Notes: generated from the letters alone by a model not told the origin. A stretch of 64,000 bases of DNA from an uncultured Desulfomicrobium sp. (GCA_937872685.1 CALMTS010000500.1:11560-75559), one strand, 5' to 3'; positions 57,620 to 64,000 are shown, numbered from the stretch's first letter. Translations and numbers: made by a program.

Positions 57620-58888
57620 ATGATACGCGATACAGACATTGGCGGTCCATCAAACAGGGACGCCATTCCGATTCAAGACCTGCGAAGCTTCTTGAACGAC
57701 TTTCCTGCTCTGCTCTGGCGGATTGAAATCGCTCGGTCGCGGATCGAATTCCTGAACGATTATCCCCTTCATCCCCTGGGAGACAGCGCCCGGCTGTTTT
57801 TGAAGAACAGGGCGTTCCGGAAGCAGATGCTTCTCCCCGAGGACGCCCACCTGCTGGACAAGTTCCTGGATGCCGTCAGCCAGGGCCAAACCATGGCCAC
57901 GGTCTTTCGCGTGTACACTCCGGCGGATTCCATCATGTGGCTCAAGCTCACCGGCACGATGAACTCTTCGGACCCGCGCTATTATTACGGCTATCTCCTC
58001 GACGTGGGCGATACTGTGGATGTGATCCGGGACATCCAGCGCAGTGAAGCCGCTTCCCGTATGCGTATCGAGAACGTGCCCACACCTATCCTGCTCGTGA
58101 ATCACCAATCCCTGCGACTGCGTCAGGCCAACGCCGCCGCCCGCAACCTGTTCGGGCTGCCCAGTGCCTCCACCGGAACGCTGCCCCATTTTTCCGAAAT
58201 ATCACCTCATTTGATCGAGAGCCTGGGAAGTATTCTGAACGATCTTCCGAGCCAGCCGTGGCAGGGAGTGCTCGAATTCTGCACGACTCAGGGAGAAACC
58301 TTCAAGGCCATGGCCTGGCTGAATTGGGTGCCATGGAAGCAGACGGCCCTGGTCCGGATTTCGGTGATGCCCGTTTCCGACAACAAGAGGGATGATCAGA
58401 AGCTGGCGCGAAACCTGCGGTCCACGTTCAGCGGCGCGCCGAACCTATCGGCCATGCTGGGACAGGCCCTGGAGCATCCGGATATCAGCAAAAGATGCAA
58501 TGCGGTCATGCTTTCGGACGTCCACGCCCGAAGCAACACGGTCCAGGTCTACGGAGCCGGCGCTCCGCTGGCAGACATGCCCGCCGGCGAAACTTTTTCG
58601 TACAGGGGGACCATCGCCGAAGACATCGAGCGCTTCGATCTCGACCACCTGGTGGTGGACGACACCATGGACAGCATCAAGCCCATCGACTGGGCGCTGT
58701 TCATACCGCGCGGCATTCGCTCCTACTTTGCCAAGCCGTTTTACGACGAAGAAGGTCTGCGTACGGTGCTCATTCTCTGCTCTACGGAGCCGGAACGGTT
58801 TGTGGACGTCAAGCCGGACGCCTTCGATCATGTTCTTGTCCCGCTTGAGGAGGCCATCCGGTCCTTTCGCAGGAAACACGGTCGCTAG
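57620..58888 (+). CDS. PAS-PAS-GAF-like sensor protein with no output domain
   Basis: PAS signatures (WLKLTG, PILLVN...ANAAARNLFG) and a C-terminal GAF-like region (GIRSYFAKP). Confidence 0.6.
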   Translation: MIRDTDIGGPSNRDAIPIQDLRSFLNDFPALLWRIEIARSRIEFLNDYPLHPLGDSARLFLKNRAFRKQMLLPEDAHLLDKFLDAVSQGQTMATVFRVYTPADSIMWLKLTGTMNSSDPRYYYGYLLDVGDTVDVIRDIQRSEAASRMRIENVPTPILLVNHQSLRLRQANAAARNLFGLPSASTGTLPHFSEISPHLIESLGSILNDLPSQPWQGVLEFCTTQGETFKAMAWLNWVPWKQTALVRISVMPVSDNKRDDQKLARNLRSTFSGAPNLSAMLGQALEHPDISKRCNAVMLSDVHARSNTVQVYGAGAPLADMPAGETFSYRGTIAEDIERFDLDHLVVDDTMDSIKPIDWALFIPRGIRSYFAKPFYDEEGLRTVLILCSTEPERFVDVKPDAFDHVLVPLEEAIRSFRRKHGR

Positions 58889-59167: not shown

Positions 59168-59184
59168 AATTGGTTGAACCAAAT
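59168..59184. promoter_or_regulatory. FadR-subfamily (PdhR/LldR-like) operator O1
   Basis: AATTGGT-TGA-ACCAAAT matches AATTGGTnnnACCAATT at 13 of 14 specified positions. Confidence 0.7.
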
Positions 59185-59268
59185 GCAATATTGGGTCAAA
59201 AAACCGAGAAAAGTGGGCCGATCTTACAGTTTTCGTGAAAAAAATTTGCCGCATCGTGCCCCTTGGAT

Positions 59269-59285
59269 GATTGGTAACACCAATA
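59269..59285. promoter_or_regulatory. FadR-subfamily operator O2
   Basis: ATTGGT-AAC-ACCAAT has perfect 6-bp arms; lies about 30 nt upstream of the regulator ATG. Confidence 0.72.
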
Positions 59286-59313
59286 GCGTTTCAAAACGCA
59301 AGGATCATTCGGC

Positions 59314-60069
59314 ATGGGAAAGAAGGACAAAGCCCTCGAAAAACTCGGGCAGATCATTCAGGACTTGGGACTCAAGGCCGGAGACAGGCTCCCGCCGGAG
59401 CGAAGTCTCGTGGAGCAACTCGACGTCAGCCGCAATACCTTGCGCGGCATTCTGCACTCTCTCGAAGCACGGGGCCTGATGGCCATCAGGCCCGGCAGCG
59501 GTTGCTACTTGCGCGTGGGGATATCCGCTACTCAGGACAATCCCCTGGATCTGAACCTCAGCCCGGAAAAGGCCATCGCGGACCAGCTCGAAGCAGCTTA
59601 CCTGATCATGCCCATGGTCGCCGAACATGCTGCCGAACGCATCGGCGAACGGCATCTGGAAGACCTGAAGCAATGCAGCGTGAACATCTCCCGTTCCATA
59701 TTCCAGGAGTCCACCGAGCGCGTGTGGAGCGAGAGTCTGACGTTTTTCCGGCTCATGGCCGTGGGCACGGGCAACGATTTTCTGGTGCGCACGGTGGAGC
59801 AGGTCTGTTCCGCGGACATGGCCGCCTACGACTTCTTCTTCTCTATCAGGCGGGACGAGCGCGAGGCCATCTTTGCGGACCACATCAAGCTGCTGCACGC
59901 CCTGCGCGCCCGGGACAGGGAGTGGGCCAGGTCCATAACCGCCAATTTCTTCCTGCGCATGAGCCGCATCCTGGAAGAACGGGAACAGGTGCCCATGACC
60001 GACCTTGTCTTCCGTTCGCTCAGGAAGAAGGCCGAACAGGATAAGAGGAACGAGACGTGGCGAACCTGA
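59314..60069 (+). CDS. GntR family regulator, FadR/FCD subfamily
   Basis: GDRLPPERSL..LDVSRNTLR wHTH, RPGSGCY, FCD-like C-terminus (TGNDFL, DHIKLL). Confidence 0.88.
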   Translation: MGKKDKALEKLGQIIQDLGLKAGDRLPPERSLVEQLDVSRNTLRGILHSLEARGLMAIRPGSGCYLRVGISATQDNPLDLNLSPEKAIADQLEAAYLIMPMVAEHAAERIGERHLEDLKQCSVNISRSIFQESTERVWSESLTFFRLMAVGTGNDFLVRTVEQVCSADMAAYDFFFSIRRDEREAIFADHIKLLHALRARDREWARSITANFFLRMSRILEEREQVPMTDLVFRSLRKKAEQDKRNETWRT

Positions 60070-60320
60070 CGCGCAGGCAGTTTTTCAGGGGAGGTTTCCA
60101 GACCGGGCGGCATGTCGTCGCCGTGGCCGCAGGCAATGAACAGCCGAAGCCGGAGATCAGACCGGGCGGGCTGGGGGCCATTGCAGGGGATTTCCCCCCG
60201 GAGATGCTTGCTTTGGAAGCACAGAGGCTGGGGCTGGACCCGGACTCCACGGACCGTGAAACCCTGCTGGCGGCCGTCTACGCCGCCATGACGGGCCACG
60301 GTCCGGGAAACACCGGGTAA
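60057..60320 (+). CDS. Small hypothetical protein with an N-terminal twin-arginine-like motif
   Basis: GTG start with GAGG SD, overlaps the regulator 3' end; TRRQFF; 87 aa. Confidence 0.55.
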   Translation: MANLTRRQFFRGGFQTGRHVVAVAAGNEQPKPEIRPGGLGAIAGDFPPEMLALEAQRLGLDPDSTDRETLLAAVYAAMTGHGPGNTG

Positions 60321-60388
60321 AACCGAACAATCCGGGAAGGCGGGGTGGGGCCCGCGTCCCGGTATCCCCTTTAAGGAGGAGGTTGCTT

Positions 60389-61807
60389 ATGGAACGGTTT
60401 GGTGAAGGCTACTTGGAAGAGCGAAAACTCGTCAAGCGATGGGCGGGGCCTGTGCCCGCGCTGGTCAGCCTGGCGCTGACGCTCGCCGTCTTCTATCTGA
60501 CCTGGTGGATTTTCCAGGACCCGCGCGGCGTCATGCGCATGTACACCCCGTATGTGGGCTACATGTACTGCCGCTGGTGGCTGATCATGATGATCTGGAT
60601 GGTCTATATCTTCAACTACTGGCCATTCAAGAGAAAATGGCTTGAAACGGCCCACCCGTTGCTCAAGGGGACCGTCTTGACGGCGGTTTCGGCAGTCATT
60701 CTGCTCGTGCTCATCAAGGGATTCTTCGAATATCTGCTGGGCAATTTCGGGCTGGCCTACTTCAATCCCGCGCAGCTGGAAAAGCTGCCCGGCGTGACGA
60801 GTTTCTTCGCCATCGAGTATTCGGCCCTGGCCATCCTGATGTTCGCGGCCATCGCGAGCTGGCTGTCGCCCGCGTGGGTCGTGGCTTTCGAAGAGGCGCC
60901 GTGGCAGAAACTTCCGCAACCCGCCAAGGGCTTCTCCATTCTGATCATGACCTTTTTCCTGTCCACGGTGGTCTATTTCGTGACCATGCATCCGCACATG
61001 GGCATCCTGTACCACCCGTGGCAGTATTTCACGTCCATCGCCCCGCCGTACTGGGAACAATTCGCTGACACGGTCTCGGGCAATTTCCACGTATCCTGGA
61101 TCATGTGCTGTACGGTGGTGGTCTGGCTTGTGGAAACCATCTGGGAGCGCTACCCCTTCAACCTCATCAAGAACGATTGGGCGCGCCGCTTTGCGTGCTT
61201 TTTCGGCATCATCGCCATCGCGCTGGCCATGCACTTCTTCCTGTACTTCGCCCAAGAACTGACCTGGGGCGAGGCCATCCGCGGCACCCGCAGGGATTTC
61301 GCACCGGACTGGCGCTGGCTGCATGTCGGTGAAATGGCCATCTTCTTCCTGGTCCCGGCCCTGTTCCTGACCTTCTATTGCGACAACTGGCCAAAGAAGT
61401 ACTCCATGCCCGTCAACGTGCTCCTGCGCACCGTGGTCACGCTGGCCGGCGCCATCGCGCTGTACATCGTCTACTACAAGACCTCGCACCTGTTCCTCGG
61501 CACGCAGAAGGGCTTCTCGCATCCGCAGCAGTTCCCCATGATTCCGATGATCTGGCTGGTCAACATCTGGCTTGTGCACCACTGGTTCATGGACAACTGG
61601 CCCGCGTGGAAGATGGTTCCCAAGACCGTAGCGGAGATCGAGGCCGACCATGCCGCCCACAAGGCCGCCATCGGCGAGGTTCGCTGGACGCCCAAGTTCG
61701 GCGCGGGCCTCGGCGCCGGCGTCGCCATGGGCGTGGTCTTCTACTTCGTGACGGTCTGGGCCCTGCCCGCCGTCTACGAATACGTCAACATCATCCCCGG
61801 CAAGTAG
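60389..61807 (+). CDS. Uncharacterised polytopic membrane protein (about 11-12 TM) with internal repeats; probable transporter or membrane module
   Basis: AAGGAGGAGG SD; strong codon bias; alternating hydrophobic helices; recurrent (F/W/C/M)-(D/E/N)-x-(W/Y/A)-P motif. Confidence 0.75.
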   Translation: MERFGEGYLEERKLVKRWAGPVPALVSLALTLAVFYLTWWIFQDPRGVMRMYTPYVGYMYCRWWLIMMIWMVYIFNYWPFKRKWLETAHPLLKGTVLTAVSAVILLVLIKGFFEYLLGNFGLAYFNPAQLEKLPGVTSFFAIEYSALAILMFAAIASWLSPAWVVAFEEAPWQKLPQPAKGFSILIMTFFLSTVVYFVTMHPHMGILYHPWQYFTSIAPPYWEQFADTVSGNFHVSWIMCCTVVVWLVETIWERYPFNLIKNDWARRFACFFGIIAIALAMHFFLYFAQELTWGEAIRGTRRDFAPDWRWLHVGEMAIFFLVPALFLTFYCDNWPKKYSMPVNVLLRTVVTLAGAIALYIVYYKTSHLFLGTQKGFSHPQQFPMIPMIWLVNIWLVHHWFMDNWPAWKMVPKTVAEIEADHAAHKAAIGEVRWTPKFGAGLGAGVAMGVVFYFVTVWALPAVYEYVNIIPGK

Positions 61808-61826
61808 CCCGGAACAGGAGCATCGC

Positions 61827-62984
61827 ATGTCAGACAACATGAAGAGACGCGACTTCCTGAAGGGAGCCGCCACAGGCGTGGGCGTCGGCCTGCTGGGGGC
61901 CATGGGACTCTATTCCTACTCCCCGCTGCGCAAGAGCCATTTCAGCAAGCCCGAGCGCAAGATGGCCGACATCGGCACGTGCAAGGGCATCAAGGTCACC
62001 AACATCTCGGAAACCAGCTGGTTCGAGAATGGCGTACTCATGGGCGACATCAAGGGCGCGGGCGGCCTGCTCGTGAACCAGTACGAGTACAACTGGCCTC
62101 CGTTCGGTAACGGCAAGGGGCTGGGCAAGGGCTCCTACGAGGAAGGGATTTCCCAGATCAAGCATTTGCTTCCCGACCGTCTGGACGAGGCGTGGGAGAT
62201 CATCCAGGGCAATTCCGTGCATCCGGAAAACGCCGGCGGTTATGCGGCGCTGGTCGAGGTCGAGGAAATGAGCGGCACGAAGCGCAAGTTCCTGCTCGAT
62301 GTGGGCTGGTCCTACAAATGGTGCGACGAGTGCTTCAAGCGCGAGGGCATCGACAAGATGCTCCAGAACAAGGAGATCGAGGCCCTGTTCTTCTCCCACG
62401 AGCACTTCGACCACTTCTGGGGCCTTCCGGTCGCCCTGAAATACGATCCGGAAATCACCATCTACATCCCCGAGGGTTTCTATCCCGAAGGCCTGCAGTA
62501 CATTAAGGACTGCGGCCACAAGGGCGAACTCATCACGGTCAAGCCGGGCCTCAACAAAGTCATCCCCGGCATGGCGAGCTACGTCTTCGCCATTCCCATC
62601 ATCTGCCGCGTGTACGGGGAGCAGTCCCTGTACTTCAACGTCGCGGAAAAGGGCCTCGTCAGCGTCACGGGCTGCTGCCACCAAGGAATCATCCAGTTCG
62701 CCGAGACCGCCTACAAGGAGATCAAATACGAGAACGACAACTTCTACGGCATCTACGGCGGCCTGCACATCTCACCCTTCGACGACTGGGACCCGAAATA
62801 CGACGACTTGGTCATCTCGCTGCATGACTACGGCTTCGAGCGCATCGGCTGCAACCACTGCACCGGCGTGCTCTGCGCCAAGAAGTTCATCGCCGCAGGA
62901 TACCCGGTGGTGGAGGGAACAGCCCGCTTCAAATCCAAGGACAAGGCGTATCTCGGCAACGGGGACACCATCACCTTCGGGTGA
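61827..62984 (+). CDS. Tat-signal MBL-fold metallo-hydrolase (COG1237-like)
   Basis: KRRDFLK Tat motif + h-region; LLDVG, SHEHFDH, GCCHQG, GGLH, NHCTG. Confidence 0.85.
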   Translation: MSDNMKRRDFLKGAATGVGVGLLGAMGLYSYSPLRKSHFSKPERKMADIGTCKGIKVTNISETSWFENGVLMGDIKGAGGLLVNQYEYNWPPFGNGKGLGKGSYEEGISQIKHLLPDRLDEAWEIIQGNSVHPENAGGYAALVEVEEMSGTKRKFLLDVGWSYKWCDECFKREGIDKMLQNKEIEALFFSHEHFDHFWGLPVALKYDPEITIYIPEGFYPEGLQYIKDCGHKGELITVKPGLNKVIPGMASYVFAIPIICRVYGEQSLYFNVAEKGLVSVTGCCHQGIIQFAETAYKEIKYENDNFYGIYGGLHISPFDDWDPKYDDLVISLHDYGFERIGCNHCTGVLCAKKFIAAGYPVVEGTARFKSKDKAYLGNGDTITFG

Positions 62985-62999
62985 CGTCTGATCCATCCC

Positions 63000-63035
63000 C
63001 GGCCGTCCTCCCCGTGAGGGCGGCCGGGCCTTTTT
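63000..63035 (+). terminator. Terminator-like hairpin between the MBL gene and the COG0523 gene
   Basis: CGGCCGTCCTC/GAGGGCGGCCG stem (one G-U pair) followed by CCTTTTT. Confidence 0.6.
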
Positions 63036-63045
63036 CGGAGACCCC

Positions 63046-64000
63046 ATGGCACTCAGCCTGAACACCCTGCTCCCCCCGGCGCTGCTGGAGAACCCGGTCC
63101 TGGCTGCGGCGGAGCTGCCCCGCGCACTGATGACCCGCGTGAACTTCATCCCCGGCGTGCGGCACCGCCTCGGCTGGCGCGGCGTTCGCGCCTGCGTCAA
63201 GGGCAGGGGCGGGGTCACCGTGCGCATTACCGGCATGCCAGGCGTCTACGGCGTGCATCCCCTGAACACGGGGTTGGTCGATGGGACAGGGCTGGCGACC
63301 TTCGCGCTGTTCTATTTCCCTGCCCCCGACGAGGAGTTGGTCGAGCGTTTCAGCGTGCAGGCGGGAATCATCGCCCAGGCCGAAGACTACCTCGACCGCG
63401 TCCGCGAATTCACCCTGCACGACGACCTGCGCACCCTGTTCGGCATCGCCGTCCTGGAGGCGTATTTCCGCCCCGCAACCGGGGTGTCGCTTGCTCTGAC
63501 CGCGCCACGGCACGATATCGTGCTGGCCCTGGATGGCGTTACCGTGCAGGCGCCGTTGGGGCAGGTGCAGGCCGTCGAGCCCGGCGGGGAGGACCAGAAT
63601 CTGCCCGCGTGGGACGTGGCGGTCCCTTTTTTCGACGCGCTGGCGGCCTCGGCCTCATATTGCCTCGGGCTTTCGCCCCAGTCCATGATGAAGAGCTCTC
63701 GGCCGGGCATGCGCCGGGTGTATGGGGGCGGAAGCGGCCTGCGGTCGGAGACGGAGCCGCGAGCGCGGGACATCCGTTTTGGGCTGGGGTGGGACATGGC
63801 GGTGCCCGCAAATGCGGACATGAAGACCACGGAACTGTGCTGGGCCGCGCCGGAACCCCTGCCGGACGAGTACGGCGACGCGCTCTGGCGTTCGCCAGAC
63901 GTGCCGGGTGCCGCCAACAGCCTGGACAAGCGCACCATGGGCATTACGGAACGGCCCCGGCTTATCGTGCTGACGGGCTTTCTCGGTTCGGGCAAGACCA
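63046..64000 (+). CDS. Partial gene: COG0523 (CobW/P47K) G3E GTPase with a ~305-aa N-terminal extension; runs off the window
   Basis: Translated by hand: open from ATG 63046 (GGAG SD) with no stop; ends LIVLTGFLGSGKT. Missing from the ORF track because it has no stop. Confidence 0.8.
   Translation, partial: MALSLNTLLPPALLENPVLAAAELPRALMTRVNFIPGVRHRLGWRGVRACVKGRGGVTVRITGMPGVYGVHPLNTGLVDGTGLATFALFYFPAPDEELVERFSVQAGIIAQAEDYLDRVREFTLHDDLRTLFGIAVLEAYFRPATGVSLALTAPRHDIVLALDGVTVQAPLGQVQAVEPGGEDQNLPAWDVAVPFFDALAASASYCLGLSPQSMMKSSRPGMRRVYGGGSGLRSETEPRARDIRFGLGWDMAVPANADMKTTELCWAAPEPLPDEYGDALWRSPDVPGAANSLDKRTMGITERPRLIVLTGFLGSGKT

Follow-up and report, generated by a model that had tools for sequence, protein, structure and literature searches.

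A conserved gene module for a putative Tat-exported metallo-β-lactamase-fold protein, a membrane protein of no known family and an extended COG0523 GTPase

Organization of the locus

The window analyzed here, a stretch of 64,000 nucleotides (nt) from an uncultured Desulfomicrobium sp. (GCA_937872685.1, CALMTS010000500.1:11560-75559), ends in a module of five genes whose possible role in periplasmic redox chemistry is the subject of this report. Based on a listing of open reading frames (ORFs) and on Pfam and NCBIfam domain scans, the five genes all lie on the + strand between positions 59314 and 64000, as the original prediction, made from the sequence alone, had stated. They encode a regulator, a small protein, a membrane protein, a protein with a twin-arginine translocation (Tat) signal and the metallo-β-lactamase (MBL) fold, and a COG0523 GTPase. 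The features of the locus, in window coordinates, are the following:

57620-58888, + strand: PAS/GAF-like sensor protein of 422 amino acids (aa) with no output domain (PAS_8, E 5e-5)
59170-59182, no strand assigned: operator 1, TTGGT-TGA-ACCAA, a FadR/PdhR-type palindrome found by motif search
59271-59283, no strand assigned: operator 2, (A)TTGGT-AAC-ACCAA(T), 31 nt 5' of the regulator start codon
59314-60069, + strand: FadR-subfamily GntR regulator (helix-turn-helix and FCD domains, Pfam), the first gene of the operon
60057-60320, + strand: small cytoplasmic-looking protein of 87 aa, with homologues adjoining the membrane gene in both clades described below
60389-61807, + strand: Trp/Tyr/Phe-rich membrane protein of 472 aa with 11 transmembrane (TM) helices and no known family
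61827-62984, + strand: Tat-signal MBL-fold protein of 385 aa, COG1237/Tflp branch (Tat profile, PDB relatives)
62998-63028, + strand: intra-operon hairpin and T-run (13 pairs, 11 of them G-C, then CCTTTTT)
63046-64000, + strand, ending at window-equivalent 64866: COG0523 GTPase with an N-terminal domain of about 300 aa (cobW, CobW_C)

The contig, one of 506 in the assembly, reaches 1.8 kb beyond the end of the window. The COG0523 gene ends 866 nt past the window, at window-equivalent 64866, which gives a full product of 606 aa, and the gene that follows it sits on the opposite strand, so the operon ends with the COG0523 gene. The expectation that the module continues past the window thus holds for the remainder of this gene and for no further one. 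In the other direction, the conserved neighborhood extends upstream to the PAS/GAF gene at 57620-58888, beyond the coordinates of the original prediction.

The start of the small-protein ORF overlaps the stop of the GntR regulator by 13 nt. The start of the membrane gene was placed at ATG 60389, behind the strong Shine-Dalgarno site AAGGAGGAGG, and not at TTG 60383, because the homologues share the same initial MER... residues. As anticipated in the original prediction, codon bias is greatest in the membrane and MBL genes, with effective numbers of codons (Nc) of 36.6 and 33.5 and GC contents at third codon positions (GC3) of 0.86 and 0.87, respectively, against Nc values of 39-45 in the other genes of the module. 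At about 0.60, the overall GC content of these two genes is below the 0.67 of the GTPase gene that shares their operon; this gap is due to codon positions 1 and 2, that is to amino acid composition, as GC3 is high in all three. The GC-rich hairpin of 13 base pairs at 62998-63028, followed by CCTTTTT, stands between the MBL stop and the COG0523 start and may be a partial terminator or an mRNA stabilizer that sets the ratio of enzyme to chaperone; it would fit a chaperone output lower than that of the structural proteins.

Two minus-strand ORFs, at 60371-61903 (510 aa) and 61830-62768 (312 aa), lie antisense to the membrane and MBL genes. Comparable antisense ORFs return in GC-rich related loci, and they look like artefacts of high GC3 rather than genes.

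Distribution and conservation of the module

Relatives of the membrane gene were found in 357 species of several phyla in the genome collection, and 80 loci drawn from these species were fetched for the survey of the main clade, to which the window belongs. The carriers include Desulfovibrionaceae, Desulfobacterales, Desulfuromonadales, SAR324, Leptospirales and other Spirochaetota, Rhodobacterales, Rhodospirillales, Methylocystaceae and others. They include reducers of sulfate, sulfur and metals as well as marine Alphaproteobacteria, and most carriers of the module are anaerobic. The genes do co-occur in other genomes: the order membrane protein, MBL protein and long COG0523 protein was found in adjacent genes in nearly all of the 80 loci. 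A small protein with the motif [RK][RK]xF[FL] is encoded directly 5' of the membrane gene in many of them, with either type of regulator described below. The genes flanking the module vary from locus to locus, and the module is both conserved and mobile; a tblastn search of 72,556 plasmids gave no match to the membrane protein. With its regulator and operators present and its genes kept together across genomes, it behaves as the regulated, self-contained module that had been postulated.

Across phyla the membrane proteins are 74-97% identical and the MBL proteins 72-98%. In 48 loci the mean pairwise identity was 0.767 for the membrane protein, 0.768 for the MBL protein and 0.40 for the GTPase fusion, and the distances of the membrane and MBL proteins were correlated (r = 0.79). 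Since the accessory genes diverged as expected for these phyla and the two core proteins did not, strong purifying selection explains the conservation of the core proteins better than recent transfer. Their shared constraint may be read as the sign of a tight complex between the membrane and MBL proteins.

Two further gene families were observed beside the main-clade module. One, absent from the operon in the window and with no Pfam or NCBIfam match, encodes a lipoprotein of 125 aa with an (I/V)PEMKE(F/C)M motif and conserved Cys, sometimes as a tandem duplicate, in about 19 loci (L005:14578-14952, L041:9736-10110, L048:9735-10445 and some 16 others); it usually stands between the MBL and GTPase genes and follows the GTPase gene in L005 and L018. 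The other is an exbB-exbD-tonB set directly 3' of the GTPase gene in 6-8 loci (among them L030:11460-12966, L041:12218-13783 and L005:15203-16831), which in L030 overlaps the GTPase stop. No TonB-dependent receptor gene was found near these sets.

Distant full-length homologues of the membrane protein, traced to their contigs, and 80 loci added by a metagenome scan together reveal a sister clade. Its membrane proteins are 35-45% identical to that of the window and end without the last helix, and its Tat-signal MBL proteins are 40-43% identical to the window's. The core genes occur in the order MBL protein, membrane protein, small protein with the twin-arginine-like (RR) motif and a stand-alone protein homologous to the N-terminal domain of the GTPase fusion (N-domain); no COG0523 gene was present in the sister-clade operons inspected. 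Because these operons keep the four genes without COG0523, the set of MBL protein, membrane protein, RR-motif protein and N-domain is the ancestral core, to which the main clade has added the GTPase by fusion.

The sister-clade operons usually begin with a gene for a small secreted protein, present in 30 of the 49 loci with enough upstream sequence. All 37 of these proteins examined carry CxxCH (37/37), and the Pfam hit to Cytochrome_CBB3 is weak and falls below the cut-off (E 0.0025); we read them as probable monohaem cytochromes c. At the other end of the operon, 23 of 51 loci have a gene for a NifX-like protein, whose main-clade counterpart matches the C-terminal domain of the iron-sulfur (Fe-S) carrier MrpORP. 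A sigma-54 activator is encoded near 30 sister-clade loci; in 21 of these, as in 8 main-clade loci, the activator carries C-x-[DE]-x6-C-x3-C (29 loci). In OrpR of Desulfovibrio vulgaris a C-x8-C-x3-C motif binds a redox-sensing [4Fe-4S] cluster (PMC8359166). Regulators of the Crp/Fnr type adjoin the module in a few loci. Two sister-clade neighborhoods were each observed once: genes for a Rieske protein, a cytochrome b and a multihaem cytochrome c directly 3' on the same strand (L090:6811-9461), and genes for NifS and NifU 3' on the same strand (L091:8126-9834).

The literature on COG0523, MBL/Tflp/COG1237, twin-arginine, CobW, GntR and OrpR yielded no published description of the module, in keeping with the original statement that it matches no described pathway. 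Three of its four core proteins have no function, family name or solved fold. The features new here are the sister clade with its cytochrome c, the stand-alone chaperone domain, the Cys counts over both clades, the count of the OrpR motif and the duplication in the membrane protein.

The predicted Tat-exported MBL-fold protein

The MBL protein shows the motif HEHFDH and a Tat signal that scores 21.6 bits with TIGR01409, above the cut-off of 16.7. Its signal consists of KRRDFLKG followed by GAATGVGVGLLGAMGLY, with a hydropathy of 1.79 and 1 charged residue, compared with a mean hydropathy of 1.49 and 1.8 charged residues for the signal peptides of the family. This is a normal Tat signal with an n-region and a hydrophobic h-region, and export is predicted, as originally proposed for the metallo-hydrolase-like protein. 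Pfam Lactamase_B scored 22.0 bits, just under its cut-off of 22.7, yet phmmer detected PDB relatives with E-values up to 5e-4, namely 7DCK (E 1.8e-14), 2P4Z (Tflp, E 1.8e-10) and 3H3E. Membership in the MBL superfamily follows from HxHxDH, the downstream His ligands H285, H314 and H344 and the homology to solved MBL folds.

Invariance was read over 59 main-clade and 54 sister-clade MBL sequences. In these 113 sequences H191, H193, D195, H196, H231, C283, C284, H285, H314, C342, H344 and C345 are invariant or nearly so, and residues 91-131 are an insert of 41 aa peculiar to the main clade. Tflp has been described as an iron-dependent, oxidoreductase-like MBL protein in which motif 4 contains a Cys, another Cys, unique to it, follows the motif-5 His, and an [Fe-S] centre is present in the reduced state (PMC7785958). 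Alignment to 2P4Z pairs VTGCCHQG with VTGCSHAG and NHCTG with GHCTG, which places C283 at the motif-4 Cys and C345 at the Cys after the motif-5 His, both of them invariant. The four invariant Cys would thus sit beside the dinuclear His/Asp site, and the protein probably holds iron or an Fe-S-like cluster. The label '7,8-dihydropterin...synthase', automatic for COG1237, was set aside: it is ill-suited to a Tat-exported protein, and no linked methanopterin genes were seen in the carrier bacteria.

The membrane protein

The membrane protein has no Pfam or NCBIfam match at E 0.01, and its family is a small one: 1.8 billion representatives contain about 150 clusters of it at 50% identity. An AF2 model computed from an alignment of 25 sequences reached a predicted local distance difference test score (pLDDT) of 86.5 and a predicted TM-score (pTM) of 0.85. 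Foldseek found no significant PDB fold match for it (best E 0.1, TM-score 0.17), and the family profile had no PDB sequence match. The top Foldseek matches were the NrfD-like ActC and ActF of alternative complex III (E 0.1-0.4, TM-score 0.17); as these are non-significant and no Pfam match (PF03916) accompanies them, the likeness to NrfD/ActC is kept as an analogy and not as membership.

A comparison of the two halves of the protein with hhalign aligned 134 collinear columns (Prob 91%, E 1e-6), pointing to a two-fold duplication of a unit of about four helices; reversed and block-shuffled profiles scored lower and did not reproduce the match. By sequence, TM2-5 and TM6-9 are a direct duplication. 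The description of a repeat membrane protein in the original prediction therefore stands as one two-fold duplication and not as five tandem hairpin repeats, for which the hairpin-level profile comparisons were weak (best Prob 69%). Lys and Arg residues are distributed 18 inside and 8 outside when the N-terminus is placed in the cytoplasm; this favors the N-in topology and would put E145, R311 and H314, which are conserved throughout the family, on the predicted periplasmic face together with the loops of highest conservation. The conserved loops predicted on that side comprise residues 46-56, 202-233, 296-311 and 373-385. The JGI label 'AAT family amino acid transporter' found no Pfam, NCBIfam, PDB-sequence or fold support. 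Chains of the APC/LeuT fold gave Foldseek E-values of 0.6-1.7 and TM-scores of 0.12-0.17, and the internal repeat is direct with an offset of four helices, unlike the inverted 5+5 arrangement of that fold.

The GTPase fusion, the N-domain and the small protein

The COG0523 product contains cobW (PF02492) at residues 307-477 (E 1.5e-38), CobW_C (PF07683, E 4e-9), a P-loop GFLGSGKT near residue 311, right at the end of the window, and a GCVCC motif. These features, together with the preceding N-domain of about 300 residues without family match, make it the extended COG0523 GTPase that the original prediction had described. The fusion remains under the NCBIfam cut-offs of the named equivalogs, with 113 bits against 361 for the YjiA type, 93 against 332 for CobW and 80 against 600 for ZigA. 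The N-domain was modelled by AF2 with a pLDDT of 93.9 and a pTM of 0.91 and has no fold or sequence relative in PDB. It is homologous to the stand-alone sister-clade proteins of 270-330 aa (BLASTP E 3e-11, 6e-10 and 2e-5), some of which end in Cys/His-rich tails, as metallochaperones do. A COG0523 chaperone dedicated to the predicted Tat-exported metalloprotein, in line with the original prediction, would be the natural reading.

The small protein has no Pfam or NCBIfam match. Its N-terminus mimics a Tat n-region, [ST]-R-[RK]-x-F-[FL], with no hydrophobic h-region behind it, and its C-terminus carries a conserved PE(L/M)L..EA.RLG(L/I)D motif. After the N-terminal motif the window's protein has a hydropathy of 0.71 and 4 charged residues, and the family means over the next 22 residues are 0.59 and 6.8 charged residues. 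We therefore rejected it as a second Tat substrate, as it has only the n-region motif, no h-region and charges thereafter; rather than being exported, it more likely stays in the cytoplasm as a partner in assembly or proofreading.

Regulation

The regulator combines a GntR winged helix (Pfam E 1.3e-13) with a C-terminal FCD domain (E 3.5e-10) and a palindromic operator of the t.GT...AC.a type, which assign it to the FadR subfamily of GntR proteins; a FadR regulator heading the module had been predicted. It reaches no named equivalog, the best NCBIfam models, PdhR and LldR, scoring far under their cut-offs. The motif TTGGTNNNACCAA matches the 64-kb window at two positions only, 59170 and 59271, where 0.02 matches are expected, and copies of it also precede the orthologous regulator genes of an alphaproteobacterial (L004) and a Desulfuromusa genome (L005/L006), in agreement with the twin operators first noted from the sequence. 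The regulator gene was found in 40 of the approximately 80 main-clade loci, and the remaining loci have a sigma-54 activator instead.

By tblastn, about half of the 80 main-clade loci have a PAS/GAF gene (28-89% identity) beside that of the GntR regulator, and its homologues match GAF_2 in L004 and PAS_9 and PAS in L035. The encoded protein may be a co-sensor acting on the GntR regulator. In Alphaproteobacteria the PAS/GAF gene is shorter and divergently oriented.

Comparison with known systems

The MBL protein of the module shares the MBL fold, HxHxDH, the GC.H motif-4 Cys and the HC after motif 5 with Tflp (2P4Z), 7DCK, TM1679/3H3E and MJ0301-type proteins. These COG1237 relatives are cytoplasmic and 250-285 aa long, whereas the module's protein has a Tat signal, about 100 extra residues including the 41-aa insert, two further invariant Cys and, as far as gene content indicates, an obligatory membrane partner and dedicated maturation genes. 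Flavodiiron proteins offer a precedent for an MBL-type dinuclear site in electron-transfer chemistry on small molecules; in contrast to them, the module's protein has no flavodoxin domain, combines HxHxDH with a Cys ligand set and is predicted to be periplasmic.

With [NiFe]-hydrogenases and complex iron-sulfur molybdoenzymes (CISM) the module has a common logic of folded Tat export, a membrane partner, a G3E-family GTPase with a specific chaperone and redox-linked regulation, and its sister clade alone has a cytochrome partner as respiratory Tat metalloenzymes do. Yet neither the catalytic subunit, the membrane protein nor the chaperone domain is homologous to those of these enzymes, and no ferredoxin-type subunit is present. 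NrfD/PsrC subunits likewise consist of two related units of about four helices, and the NrfD-like ActC and ActF were the weak top fold matches mentioned above. Other COG0523 GTPases (CobW, YjiA, ZigA/ZagA/ZNG1 and the nitrile-hydratase activators) share cobW, CobW_C, the P-loop, GCxCC and an adjacent probable client with the module's GTPase, which differs in its new-fold N-domain, a separate protein in the sister clade, and in a client that would be Tat-exported. The likeness to the OrpR/orp cluster of D. vulgaris lies in the OrpR motif of the activators in 29 related loci and in the NifX/MrpORP-like and DUF134 neighbors; the window copy differs in having a GntR regulator and a PAS/GAF protein instead, and the orp structural genes lie outside the module.

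Proposed function and alternatives

From the gene content, its conservation, the motifs, the operators and the lack of known folds, which were observed directly, we infer a metal identity, a complex and a direction of electron flow that would make the module one for a redox metalloenzyme exported by Tat, partnered in the membrane and matured by dedicated factors, and not a hydrolase with an importer; we see an even chance that this is right. The MBL protein would be the catalytic subunit. Its metal centre would be built in the cytoplasm, and this would account for the export of a folded protein by Tat. Assembly and hand-over would be carried out by the N-domain, in the main clade fused to the COG0523 GTPase, with the small RR-motif protein assisting. 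Once exported, the MBL protein would dock on the co-conserved membrane protein, which would link it to the membrane, either through the quinone pool or through a substrate or proton path. The electron partner would be the co-transcribed monohaem cytochrome c in the sister clade, and in the main clade the quinone pool, reached via the membrane protein, or a general periplasmic cytochrome. In this genome expression would be under an autoregulated FadR-type GntR repressor acting at the two palindromic operators, with a probable contribution of the PAS/GAF protein.

The original prediction had an exported hydrolase processing an external substrate and a membrane protein that imports the product or anchors the enzyme. 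A redox enzyme with a membrane partner fits better, because the MBL protein has Tflp-type Cys, because the sister clade has cytochrome c, NifX-like and OrpR-type neighbors and because the membrane protein matches no transporter family or fold; the same observations speak against hydrolysis with import of the product, so import is left unsupported and anchoring stays viable. Several points weigh against the redox reading. The main-clade module to which the window belongs has no cytochrome c gene, and the CxxCH ORFs detected there are 5 unrelated ones among 988; the Rieske/cytochrome b and NifSU neighborhoods are each a single case. The membrane protein has one family-wide conserved His and no known quinone-site motif. 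The assignment of iron or Fe-S draws on a single described relative, Tflp, whose identity to the MBL protein is low; zinc hydrolases classically carry the HxHxDH motif as well, and zinc is the metal to which COG0523 proteins are most often tied. The regulator type of the window is common in organic-acid catabolism.

In a more developed form of the hydrolase hypothesis, the exported MBL protein would use zinc or another metal to cleave an external ester, a sulfate or phosphate ester or a lactone, a novel permease would import the product, and the GntR regulator would sense that product, for example an organic acid. The MBL fold with its HxHxDH motif and the usual link of COG0523 chaperones to zinc agree with it, as do the catabolic operons that FadR-type GntR regulators with PdhR-like operators typically govern and the JGI transporter label; phosphodiesterase genes lie near one sister-clade locus (L087), and the TonB-ExbBD set after the module in 6-8 loci would fit uptake. 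Against this stand the lack of Pfam, NCBIfam, PDB-sequence or fold support for any transporter family, an identity of about 77% across phyla that is unusual for a permease, the Tflp-type Cys with two extra invariant Cys around the metal site, the common cytochrome c, NifX-like and OrpR-type neighbors of the sister clade and the absence of catabolic product enzymes linked to the module in 160 loci, and we consider such a hydrolase possible but unlikely. The exbB-exbD-tonB genes 3' of the GTPase gene, which in L030 overlap the GTPase stop, also suit a device for metal acquisition or homeostasis in sulfidic, metal-poor habitats, in which the membrane protein would move a metal or complex, the MBL protein and the lipoprotein would bind and release it in the periplasm and the COG0523 fusion would distribute it in the cytoplasm. 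The GCxCC-bearing GTPase, the Cys/His-rich tails of stand-alone N-domain proteins, the 125-aa lipoprotein with conserved Cys that about 19 loci encode, usually between the genes for the MBL protein and the GTPase, and the NifX-like and MrpORP-like cluster carriers among the neighbors would all find a place there. This device seems improbable to us: the linked regulators are of the GntR, sigma-54/OrpR or Crp type, and none is metal-responsive in the manner of Zur, Fur or NikR; neither a TonB-dependent receptor nor an ABC importer accompanies the module with any consistency; the inspected sister-clade operons have no GTPase and yet have a cytochrome c; and export in folded form by Tat suggests that the MBL protein is a client and not a shuttle.

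The OrpR-type activators and the NifX/MrpORP-like and DUF134 proteins that adjoin the module in many Desulfobacterales and sister-clade loci raise a further alternative, a role in the envelope or in cell physiology akin to the ORP ('orange protein') system, in which the products would form a redox-controlled structural or cofactor-handling complex and not an enzyme for an environmental substrate. However, the OrpR regulon of D. vulgaris consists of two orp operons only (PMC8359166), the variants of the window and of Alphaproteobacteria have no ORP-type neighbors, and a site that looks catalytic and has been kept intact to such an extreme degree speaks for an enzyme, so that we hold this role to be highly improbable.

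For the redox metalloenzyme itself we tentatively suggest, with less than even confidence, a new class of membrane-bound, periplasm-facing oxidoreductase, in which an MBL subunit with a His/Cys-ligated iron or iron-sulfur-type cluster would sit on a membrane subunit of new fold, act on a small inorganic or otherwise very simple compound, such as a sulfur, nitrogen or oxygen species, in a respiratory or detoxifying chain of anaerobes and depend on its own new-fold maturation factor. Such a class would have a status comparable to that of the hydrogenase or nitrous-oxide-reductase systems.

Implications

The identity of about 77% that the two core proteins keep across phyla is a constraint typical of enzymes of central energy metabolism. 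In the module a COG0523 metallochaperone also has a client tied to it by genome organization, along with an adaptor domain that can be separated, and few chaperone-client pairs are so well defined. The small protein, with its imitation of a Tat n-region, could be used for the study of Tat proofreading. Cultured carriers are at hand in Malonomonas rubra DSM 5091, Desulfobacter curvatus DSM 3379, Desulfogranum mediterraneum DSM 13871 and Pseudovibrio exalbescens DSM 16456, which makes the function directly testable. If the module does encode a respiratory or detoxifying oxidoreductase, it could supply a missing activity in the cycling of elements in anoxic sediments.

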